DNA from: a virus | Taxonomy: Duplodnaviria; Caudoviricetes | DNA length: 64,000 nucleotides | Virus record (IMG/VR): IMGVR_UViG_3300033074_001483 | Span: 21,517-85,516 of that record | Reading direction: 5' to 3' (one strand) | Part shown: positions 32,724-50,085 of the stretch, piece by piece | Layout of the letters: the number at the start of each line of letters is the position of its first letter | Numbering within the stretch: the first letter of the stretch is position 1 | Notes under the pieces: generated by a model | Told to the model about the DNA's origin: nothing | The model's input: only the letters and a program-made list of their open reading frames with translations | Database searches by the model: none | Position numbers and translations under genes: made by a program

Positions 32724-33170
32724 ATAAATCTCAAAGAACTTTTGTCTGTACGACTGGCATTGAATACCTGTCCGTATCCGATGGCATTTTGCACATCTCA
32801 CCGAACACTTTTCAATCTCCAATCTAATCTTATCCCACGAAAATCCTCTCACAAGCATTGCATACACGGCGTCTTCTTTTTGTGAAGGGTCTTCGTGATC
32901 AAAGTCTAATACTCGTATGTCTGTTTCCCCACAATCTACGCACGGATGTATCATCAAATACTCACACACTTTTTGCTGTGAGTCTGCCAGTCTGCGTTTC
33001 GTTCCTTTGTTTGAACGAGTGATATACTCCCGTCTATTCTGTTTGTAATGCTGTTTTACGTACTTCCCATGACACTCTTTACATTCAGAACAACGAAGAT
33101 TTTTCGCTTTATTTCGGAATGAGAAACACTCATCCTCTTTTGGCTTTTTACAAGTACAACATTCTCTCAT
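32676..33170 (-). CDS. HNH homing endonuclease
   Basis: PCVDCGE.DIRVLDFDH..EIEKC.VRCAKCH; 3' end runs into tRNA(CAT). Confidence 0.88.
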   Translation of the reverse strand: MRECCTCKKPKEDECFSFRNKAKNLRCSECKECHGKYVKQHYKQNRREYITRSNKGTKRRLADSQQKVCEYLMIHPCVDCGETDIRVLDFDHEDPSQKEDAVYAMLVRGFSWDKIRLEIEKCSVRCAKCHRIRTGIQCQSYRQKFFEIYCGDRPEDAKHAHNVR

Positions 33171-33223
33171 ACTCATAAATATCATCGTGGAGTCAAAAAC
33201 ATCAAAGTATTTTGACTACAAAG

Positions 33224-46608: not shown

Positions 46609-47049
46609 TTATGAAATTCTGTTTTTGTACCAATGATTATTCTTAGCAAACTCTCGTTTGATATGGCAGTGGGCACATAAAAGATCACATTTCGCAATCT
46701 CTTTCAATATGCGTTTCCAACCGAATATCGTTAGCATTGTTGAAACATCATAATCCTTTTCGTTGGGATCACGATGATGAAATTGAAACAAGCGGATGTC
46801 GGTCTCGGGACAATCTTTACAAGTCTTACCTTGTAAAAACTGAATCATATTTTCCCGATTTCTATCACGCTGAATGCGTTTATTTTTGTAAGCTCTTTTT
46901 AACGCATCTTTTCTATGTTTTTTGTAATGTTTTCTGCTGTAAGAATCGTGGCATTCTTTACATTTGCTTTGCAAGATTCCCATTGCTTTGTTACGGAATG
47001 AGAAATGCGACTCGTCTTTTGGATTATGACATGCACTACATATTTTCAT
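46609..47049 (-). CDS. HNH homing endonuclease
   Basis: CKDCPE.DIRLFQFHH..EIAKCDLLCAHCH; paralog of 31414, 32676 and 49019. Confidence 0.88.
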   Translation of the reverse strand: MKICSACHNPKDESHFSFRNKAMGILQSKCKECHDSYSRKHYKKHRKDALKRAYKNKRIQRDRNRENMIQFLQGKTCKDCPETDIRLFQFHHRDPNEKDYDVSTMLTIFGWKRILKEIAKCDLLCAHCHIKREFAKNNHWYKNRIS

Positions 47050-47103
47050 GGTAATACATATCGTCGGAGGACTTGAAACTACGGAAAAGTTTCAAGTCAA
47101 AGA

Positions 47104-48939: not shown

Positions 48940-49028
48940 TGGTGCAGCCGACAGGATTCGAACCTGCGTGGGAAATGGTTATCCATCAGCTTAAAAGGCT
49001 GTTGCCTCGGCCACTTGGCTACGACTGC
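48940..49028 (-). tRNA. tRNA(TTT) (Lys anticodon) on a type II-like scaffold
   Basis: Loop CT-TTT-AA; Leu/Tyr-type D arm; ~18-nt variable region; A73; CCA. Confidence 0.85.
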
Positions 49029-49435
49029 ATTTGACGTTTTTTCCACTCCAACTTTCTATGACAATTGGAGCAAATAACATCGCATTTTTCAATTTCAGCA
49101 AGAAGTTTCTCTTTTGGCCATCCAGCATAAACAGCCTTGCTGATTTCCATCTCTTTTGTAGATGGGTCTCGATGATGAAAATCCAATGTAGCAATATGAA
49201 TTTCTGGGCATAGCAAACATTTGGATTTTGCTTTGATGTCATTGACTAAATCCAGAAGCTCCGCTTTTTTGCTCTTGATATATGCCTTGTGTTTTTGTTT
49301 ATTTGAGGCATAGTATTTCTTGGATGATTTGCGATTACACTCTCGGCACACGCCCTGCAATCCATCTTTTTTGGATGCTTTGCGATTAAACTCGGAGAGC
49401 GGTTTTTTCTTTTTACAAGTATTACATCGTTTCAT
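49019..49435 (-). CDS. HNH homing endonuclease
   Basis: CLLCPE..LDFHH..EIEKCDVICSNCH; TAG stop inside the tRNA. Confidence 0.88.
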   Translation of the reverse strand: MKRCNTCKKKKPLSEFNRKASKKDGLQGVCRECNRKSSKKYYASNKQKHKAYIKSKKAELLDLVNDIKAKSKCLLCPEIHIATLDFHHRDPSTKEMEISKAVYAGWPKEKLLAEIEKCDVICSNCHRKLEWKKRQMQS

Positions 49436-49487
49436 ATACTCATAAATAGTGATTTTAACTCTCAAAAGAGTTAAAATCCAAAAGAAC

Positions 49488-49622
49488 TAGATACGGTTTT
49501 TTTCTTCCCTTGCGGGACCGACGTTCTACATTAAACTACAGCCCCGATATGTGGCGGGGCCGACTGGGTTTGTCCAGTACTTGCGGTTTGACATAAGAAT
49601 GTTTTCTTGCTGTCCGTATCTA
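49488..49622 (-). ncRNA. Circularly permuted tRNA-like RNA (Asp-like) in an RCAGCWA helix, 135 nt
   Basis: 3' half + GCCA, 6-nt linker, then 5' half; 9-bp closing helix. Confidence 0.8.
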
Positions 49623-49630
49623 AATTGAAT

Positions 49631-49860
49631 GGGAAAGATAGTGTGCTATTACGCCAAAGACCTCAGACCGTCGCTTTCTCTTTCTCTTTGATTAGAATGA
49701 TTTGCTGCTTCTGCCTGTACCTCTGACGAGATACGAATGCGATACTTGCGATTAGGTGTGCCTCTATCCCTATGTTTCCACGGGGCGAAAAAAGACAAAC
49801 ATTTGCACTCAGTCACTCATTATAGGATTGCTGCCTCTAAGCCAACCTCCTAACTTTCCT
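49631..49860 (-). ncRNA. 23S rRNA L11-binding (H43-H44) domain mimic with internal insertion
   Basis: GGAGGTTGGCTTAGAGGCAGCAATCCT..GAGTG and GCGTAATAGCACACT, closed by GGAAAG/CTTTCC. Confidence 0.75.
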
Positions 49861-49865
49861 CAAAT

Positions 49866-49942
49866 TGGTAGCCCCACTCGGCATCGAACCGAGTTTCTCT
49901 GCTTGAAAAACAGAAGTCCTTACCAGACTAGACGATGGGGCC
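49866..49942 (-). tRNA. tRNA-Glu(TTC), copy 2
   Basis: TCTGT-TTTTCAA-GCAGA; CCA. Confidence 0.9.
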
Positions 49943-49950
49943 ATAAAAGC

Positions 49951-50085
49951 AAGATGCGTTTTTTTGTAGGCTTTCGCCGACTCCTGCTCTACTCACTGAG
50001 CTACCCAGCCATATGGTGGCTGAGGGTGGATTTGCACACACCGACACGGAGTTCCTCATACATTTTGTTTAGCTGTACGCATCTT
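49951..50085 (-). ncRNA. Circularly permuted tRNA-like RNA (Phe-derived) in an RCAGCWA helix, 135 nt
   Basis: 3' half + ACCA, 3-nt linker TAT, then 5' half; 9-bp closing helix. Confidence 0.82.

Follow-up and report, generated by a model that had tools for sequence, protein, structure and literature searches.

A phage RNA family with the fold of the 23S rRNA GTPase-associated domain, encoded among tRNA genes

Why does a phage carry, in the middle of its tRNA genes, a short piece of DNA that reads like the GTPase-associated centre of 23S rRNA? The question is raised by a stretch of 64 kb (hereafter the window) taken from an IMG/VR record of 85.5 kb, which is estimated to represent 24% of its genome. 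The window belongs to a large uncultured phage, with baseplate wedge, tail-fibre and endolysin genes, and contains approximately 40 tRNA genes at positions 30000-57500, all of them on the minus strand. It had been proposed from the letters alone (the original prediction) that a non-coding element in this array is a mimic of the L11/L10 site of 23S rRNA. We analyzed the structure, distribution, conservation and genomic context of this element, and weighed the mimic against a chimeric assembly, an interrupted rRNA gene fragment, a cis-acting signal and a carrier for other RNA.

The element occupies 228 nt of the minus strand (49859-49632), where the strings quoted in the original prediction were found, and is a self-closed copy of helices H43 and H44 (positions 1054-1105 of 23S rRNA; Escherichia coli numbering is used throughout). 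Its features are listed in table 1. An arm of 160 nt splits the rRNA-like part between U1090 and G1091. When this insert is removed, the two halves are colinear with rRNA, and of the 52 positions of the joined halves, 47 agree with the bacterial LSU consensus of Rfam. The remaining five show A1070G, C1076A, U1101A and the swap of the 1082-1086 pair from U-A to A-U, in line with the count of about two mismatches over the first 27 nt made earlier. Both factor-contacting loops, those of A1067 and A1095, can be read in the sequence, as had been claimed. The closing stem contains ten pairs including one U.U, and a CAAUUU motif resembling tRNA trailers is present 8 nt downstream of its 3' strand. 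The 5' end of the element lies 6 nt after the encoded CCA of a tRNA-Glu(UUC) gene (49866).

Table 1. Features of the rRNA-like element and the adjacent tRNA gene, in window coordinates
Feature	Position	Strand	Remarks
tRNA-Glu(UUC)	49866..49942	-	ARAGORN; Rfam tRNA 51.1 bits; encoded CCA, then AUUUGA
Closing stem, 5' strand (1046-1055), GGAAAGUUAG	49859-49850	-	replaces H42; pairs with 49641-49632
5' half (1056-1090)	49849-49815	-	
H43 hairpin (1057-1081)	49848-49824	-	1067 loop UUAGAGGCA at 49840-49832
Residues of H43: A1067; G1070; A1076	49838; 49835; 49829	-	
Junction triloop (1082-1086)	49823-49819	-	closed by A1082-U1086
H44, 5' strand GAGU (G1087-U1090)	49818-49815	-	
Variable arm (insert), 160 nt	49814-49655	-	between U1090 and G1091
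Arm-closing helix GACU / GGUC	49814-49811 / 49662-49659	-	
Linker UUUG, after the arm-closing helix	49658-49655	-	
3' half with rest of H44 (G1091-U1105)	49654-49640	-	
1095 loop GUAAUA	49652-49647	-	A1095 at 49650
A1101, family hallmark	49644	-	
Closing stem, 3' strand (1104-1113), CUAUCUUUCC	49641-49632	-	pairs with 49859-49850

Searching the element with the Rfam model of bacterial LSU rRNA (LSU_rRNA_bacteria), a check suggested with the original prediction, gave a weak local match (14.9 bits, E 0.025), because the rRNA-like domain is short and split. A covariance model (R1) was built from 31 other phage copies, none of which comes from the subclade of the window copy. This model matched the window element over its whole length (positions 1-187 of 187; 86.2 bits, E 2.8e-24) at 49631-49860 on the minus strand, and it also matched the genuine site in E. 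coli 23S rRNA (52.8 bits, E 3e-14). Thus, the central claim was confirmed: the phage encodes, as a free-standing element, a look-alike of the uL11/GTPase-associated domain. BLAST of the element against E. coli genomes returned 23S rRNA only, with 81-83% identity over 42 nt. R1 detected a single copy in the 64-kb window and the Rfam search detected no further rRNA anywhere in it, consistent with the statement that no other rRNA is nearby. An ordinary 23S gene fragment was rejected as an identity, since the LSU match is limited to 14.9 bits and the flanks pair with each other rather than continue H42. The free minimum-energy fold of the element (z -1.3) differs from the rRNA fold, which is not surprising where tertiary contacts hold a domain together.

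To what extent is this architecture shared? A scan of IMG/VR with a 16-mer spanning the linker and the H44 loop gave at least 126 matches, and at least 100 of the 126 listed have the H43 motif 74-472 nt upstream. The reverse scan used an H43 18-mer alone, so the 3' half played no part in finding copies; nevertheless, an H44-like 3' half was present downstream in 91 of 94 unique copies. In these 91 copies, the consensus of the 3' half is GCGUA[A/G][U/C/A]AGCACAC, position 1101 is nearly always A, and 69 have the linker UUUG and 10 the linker UUUA. Copies without an insert gave 0 matches in IMG/VR and were absent among the 91 found via the 5' half, and the junction between U1090 and G1091 is common to all 63 standard copies. 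In bacterial genomes (596 Gb), where about 550 chance matches of the 16-mer are expected at the size of the database, 14 of the 120 listed matches are real copies, all of them on MAG or draft contigs.

The same split architecture was found in complete genomes of isolated phages, namely Serratia phage BF, six Erwinia pEa_SNUABM phages, Cronobacter GAP32, Pectobacterium CBB, Pseudomonas pf16 and Xanthomonas XacN1, which excludes an assembly chimera with host rDNA, a concern raised with the original prediction. A copy is also present in cultured phages of Aeromonas. The copies of isolated phages score 84-114 bits, and all are unannotated. That of BF is located at about 285210-285461 (KY630187), and that of pf16 is placed between the genes for tRNA-Asn and tRNA-Pro. 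The inner closing pairs GUU/AUC are common to GAP32, CBB, BF and the window, and the first three additionally have a common arm end; the copies of GAP32, CBB and BF, which are Rak2-like giant phages, are therefore orthologous. The family is common in large phages from many environments, and its presence in related as well as unrelated phages provides the conservation on which the original prediction depended. No family of this kind is present in Rfam 15 and no description was found by full-text literature search, so that the phage RNA family is apparently undescribed. Phage T4 also has stable RNAs in its tRNA cluster, rnaC and rnaD, but these are not members.

One match was rejected, that in Paenibacillus phage Pd_22F, which is genuine 23S rRNA with U1101, no insert and an LSU score of 1306 bits. 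The end of this record (MZ092003.1, 83276-84708) corresponds to positions 400-1835 of the LSU model and probably derives from the host, through the assembly or through packaging. On a separate note, three copies (L115, L035 and L126) have an rRNA likeness that reaches further into H42, with AGACAGCCAGG upstream and CACUGGC(C/U)GAG downstream, and L035 and L126 have a second hairpin inserted after approximately position 1078. Judging from their sequences, these three may lie nearer to the form that was first captured from rRNA.

Residues and pairs were counted in 63 unique standard copies, and the covariation score was computed from a 31-sequence alignment. Each of the closing pairs 1051-1054/1105-1108 occurs as three to four Watson-Crick types (n = 63), and covariation extends over pairs 1051-1055/1104-1108, with as many as four types. 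Within the rRNA-like core, pair 1057-1081 is A-U or C-G and pair 1058-1080 is U-A, G-C, A-U or C-G in all 63 copies, whereas pair 1082-1086 is U-A, C-G or A-U in 59. At the base of the arm, the initial three pairs are present in 63, 62 and 59 of the 63 copies and show 4-5 pair types. The covariation score is 0.586 versus 0.153 in shuffles, none of 500 of which reached it, and does not exceed 0.20 with slid partners; similarly, 90% of the paired cells are filled by pairs, compared with 34-54% when partners are slid. The residues of the tertiary fold (U1060-A1088, and the base-triple residues G1071 and C1072) are invariant (63/63), and U1090 is kept in 62 copies. The cores of the window copy and the BF copy show four differences, which amount to two compensatory pairs (1054-1105, A-U/G-C; 1058-1080, G-C/U-A), and their arms are unalignable.

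Covarying helices, invariant tertiary residues and unalignable arms together demonstrate selection on the rRNA-like fold. The phage family thus mimics the fold of this domain, and the mimic is under purifying selection in a setting of phage genomes and tRNA arrays. We have little doubt that it represents a selected, functional RNA with the fold of the GTPase-associated rRNA domain. The mimicry had been extended to the L10 site; the uL11 domain is indeed copied, but no copy of the uL10 site is apparent, as the stem at the place of H42 covaries while its sequence is arbitrary in most members.

Conservation of the two loops provides further information. A1067 is kept in 54 of the 63 copies, with G, C or U in the other 9, and A1095 in 84 of the 91 copies found without using the 3' half. 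In rRNA, A1095 takes no part in tertiary contacts but touches cofactors (PMC6239185). Since both adenines are largely kept, selection appears to act on what the loops touch, beyond the fold alone. In the subclade of the window copy (10 of the 63 unique copies), H43 contains a G1062.A1076 mismatch. The window copy also has G1070, a G found in 16 of 63 copies where rRNA invariably has A (PMC6239185), and may for these reasons bind somewhat differently from rRNA. The heptamer GCAGCAA in the H43 region had been taken as a hint of shared origin with a small-RNA family of the window. In fact, 52 of the 63 members have GCAGCCA like rRNA, and GCAGCAA is a derived change of one subclade, which therefore lends no support to a common origin with the other small RNAs of the window. 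The heptamer is mildly enriched there, with 15 scattered occurrences versus 6.5 expected.

Without exception, the arm branches off H44 between U1090 and G1091, has a closing helix at its base and leads back through the linker. The original prediction was thus right about an insert but not about a simple looping out: arm and linker create a three-way junction at a fixed place in H44, in which U1090 and A1101 now form a Watson-Crick pair. The second degenerate copy of the rRNA motif suspected within the insert did not hold up, as it is an 11-nt match with one mismatch that is reached by 156 of 2000 dinucleotide shuffles (p approximately 0.08). Arm length varies from about 25 to 445 nt across the family, some arms (e.g., that of L115) being plain hairpins of about 45 nt, and arms are unalignable even among closest relatives. 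A blastn comparison of 75 arms with an entire E. coli rrn operon yielded only short matches (9-19 nt) at scattered places, with no recurrent site.

Some arms share a CACCCC-hairpin-GGUAAGG module, whose hairpin pair covaries. Besides the GTPase-associated centre, the factor-binding site of rRNA has a second element, the sarcin-ricin loop. A stem-closed hairpin similar to it, with the layout AGUA-C-GNRA-G-GA, was found in 3 of about 165 arms (L124, L274 and L297), compared with 0.2 expected by chance. All three are long arms and the loops are GAAA or GGGA, not GAGA; the motif is absent from the arm of the window copy.

These observations bear on an alternative view, in which the rRNA-like module is a folding or protein-binding handle, which uL11 would stabilise, and the arm carried in H44 is the functional part. 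tRNA-like modules that carry other RNAs offer a model for such an arrangement, and both the occurrence of an arm in every copy and the recurrence of modules and sarcin-ricin-like hairpins in arms are consistent with it. However, the range of lengths, the plain hairpins, the failure of arms of close relatives to align and the fold energy of the window arm, which is ordinary and no better than that of shuffles (z -0.9), do not point to a conserved cargo. The part that is conserved and covaries is the rRNA-like core, including loop residues which the fold can spare. We therefore regard a cargo function of the arm as unlikely.

Another explanation is that the locus is a fragment of 23S rDNA with an intervening sequence at 1090/1091, either a mobile intron with its exon stubs or a functionless relic. 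The insert is found at one exact rRNA position and its removal restores perfect colinearity, its borders, a preceding U and a terminal G, resemble those of group I splice sites, and a gene for an HNH endonuclease is located 190 nt downstream. On the other hand, no group I, group II or ribozyme family in Rfam gave a match at E values up to 10, inserts as short as 25-47 nt are too small for self-splicing, and the two ends of the insert pair together, which is not group I architecture. A self-splicing intron was accordingly rejected. In addition, the supposed stubs have a covarying stem of their own as well as the family-specific A1101 and a linker absent from rRNA, HNH genes adjoin only 7 of 77 copies, and rRNA is absent from the vicinity. 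An interrupted rRNA fragment is thus very improbable as an explanation of the family.

The genomic neighbourhood was then considered for all 77 unique copies. At most loci the element is placed between tRNA genes: a tRNA is found within 5 kb of 48 copies, 402 of the 403 tRNAs concerned are on the same strand, 14 copies begin no more than 30 nt after the end of a tRNA, and 14 end no more than 30 nt before the next one. Copies of the Rak2-like phages are flanked by small ORFs of the same orientation. Any given protein family recurs next to the element at no more than 7 of 77 loci, so that none counts as a regular neighbour, and BF, G000 and three more IMG/VR phage records with the RNA, two of which are complete giant-phage genomes, yielded no gene for uL11 or RelA/SpoT. 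The partner of the RNA is therefore probably a host molecule. Such a context makes it most improbable that the RNA is a cis-acting element, i.e., a ribosomal-protein-type autoregulatory leader or a signal that directs processing or termination of neighbouring genes: although mRNA leaders that mimic rRNA are an established feedback route of ribosomal proteins (e.g., L1 and L10(L12)4) and the small same-strand ORFs of Rak2-like phages would suit this role, the element has no conserved downstream gene and mostly lies between tRNA genes, and a ribosomal-protein leader was rejected because no ribosomal-protein gene adjoins it and the leaders in Rfam give no match.

Several additional genes were observed near individual copies. 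In the window, the location between tRNA-Glu and a permuted tRNA was verified: two circularly permuted tRNA-like genes (49943-50060 and 49520-49600, both on the minus strand) flank tRNA-Glu and the element. Each of them is arranged as T arm, 3' acceptor strand, CCA, a short AUAU linker, 5' acceptor strand and D arm, and the upstream one shows a weak match to YrlA, a Y-RNA-like family (18.4 bits, E 0.4). The HNH homing-endonuclease gene occupies 49019-49441 (minus strand; phrog_2255, E 4e-32), with a 12-bp terminator-like hairpin (49478-49451) between it and the element, and N-terminal stretches paralogous to it occur in the tRNA array at about 33106-33187 and 46985-47066 (families D14, D16 and D17). 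In another phage contig, which has 36 tRNAs around its copy, a full bacterial class A RNase P RNA is encoded (L012:9376-9703, minus strand, 263.7 bits). In XacN1 (AP018399.1), the copy lies approximately 10 nt after the stop codon of a gene annotated as 2'-5' RNA ligase, an RNA repair enzyme.

The context also suggests how the RNA might be produced. About 27 tRNA genes of the array have CCA followed by AAUUU (repeat family D1), which is likely a shared 3'-processing signal. Because similar motifs stand before the element and 8 nt after it, we infer that the RNA is expressed and released by tRNA processing. It would be co-transcribed with the tRNA array and excised by tRNA-processing enzymes, the 3' processing of tRNA-Glu setting its 5' end, and tRNA 3'-end processing together with RNase P setting it free. 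The ends of the released RNA would then pair in its own closing stem to give a free-standing replica of the GTPase-associated centre, with H43, H44 and their tertiary core.

What could such a replica do? The isolated 58-nt rRNA domain folds alone and binds the C-terminal domain of uL11, and thiopeptides then bind the cleft of A1067 and A1095 together with the N-terminal domain of uL11 (PMC1802607). Binding of host uL11 is proposed for the phage RNA because the residues of the fold recognized by the uL11 C-terminal domain and the two exposed adenines are kept and no uL11 gene was found in the phage genomes searched. The replica would bind uL11 off the ribosome and thereby present the RNA-protein surface of the stalk base. 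As far as can be judged from sequence, the balance of evidence tips towards a uL11-binding RNA with the role of a decoy or sponge, and the best overall explanation, to which we lean with slightly less assurance, is a stable RNA of approximately 228 nt, processed from the tRNA array and serving as a uL11-binding decoy.

Three targets of a decoy may be envisaged, and any one of them taken singly is doubtful. First, uL11 could be withheld from ribosomes or from RelA-dependent signalling, which would be blunted; titration of so abundant a ribosomal protein would need very high levels of the RNA. Second, the replica might intercept a toxin or immune effector directed at the GTPase-associated site. 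A precedent for attack on this site is the Rhs toxin Tre23, which ADP-ribosylates H44 around 1095-1098 (PMC8661411). Third, a translational GTPase could be engaged, to which the occasional sarcin-ricin-like hairpins point. Certain features argue against a decoy: A1067 varies in 9 of the 63 copies, and G1062.A1076 and G1070 of the window's subclade depart from rRNA.

A more speculative version, for which the chances are rather low, is that phages build a working model of the factor-binding site, in every member with the GTPase-associated centre and in some with a sarcin-ricin-loop hairpin in addition. Loaded with host uL11, this model would intercept a still undescribed host immune effector that attacks translation, or else RelA or a GTPase. 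Such an effector might be an ADP-ribosyltransferase, a nuclease or a glycosidase that shuts down translation at the rRNA site. If this is true, the RNA does for rRNA what phage tRNA arrays do for anticodon nucleases. The neighbourhood in the window, with its 40-tRNA array and two permuted tRNA-like genes, fits a toolkit of look-alikes of translation RNAs.

Comparison with known systems places the family close to several of them. The bacterial 23S centre itself (1051-1108), a 58-nt fragment bound by uL11 and thiostrepton that comprises H43, H44 and the top of H42, has the same helices, 1082-1086 pair, tertiary residues and both loops, and one model scores both. Unlike it, the phage RNA is located outside an rRNA gene, is closed by its own stem of arbitrary sequence and has an arm (160 nt in the window) and a UUUG linker in H44; it has A1101 where the rRNA consensus is U, with the mismatch of the window's subclade and G1070 of the window copy as further departures. 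The leaders of ribosomal-protein operons, such as the L10 leader and the L1 site of the L11 operon, are likewise imitations of ribosomal binding sites outside the ribosome. However, they are cis-acting 5' UTRs of cells with partial mimicry, whereas the phage RNA is a near-exact, self-contained copy among tRNA genes. Phage tRNA arrays, tRNA-like decoys that counter host nucleases and the bacterial YrlA RNA, which has a tRNA-like module, are also copies or mimics of translation RNAs and occur in the same transcription units, but the arrays and decoys copy tRNA and the RNA described here copies a functional centre of rRNA. Tre23 and the thiopeptides recognize exactly what the replica displays, that is, the H44 loop and the H43/H44 cleft. 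To our knowledge, no agent of this type is known in phage defence, and we know of no stand-alone RNA from any virus that copies a functional centre of rRNA.

Loci of this kind are easily mistaken for rRNA contamination or spurious ORFs, a point of relevance for annotation, and the copies in cultured phages make the RNA family testable at the bench now. If binding of uL11 or diversion of molecules that read this site proves true, the family would represent a new phage strategy for manipulating or protecting translation, and it could point to host defences that target rRNA.
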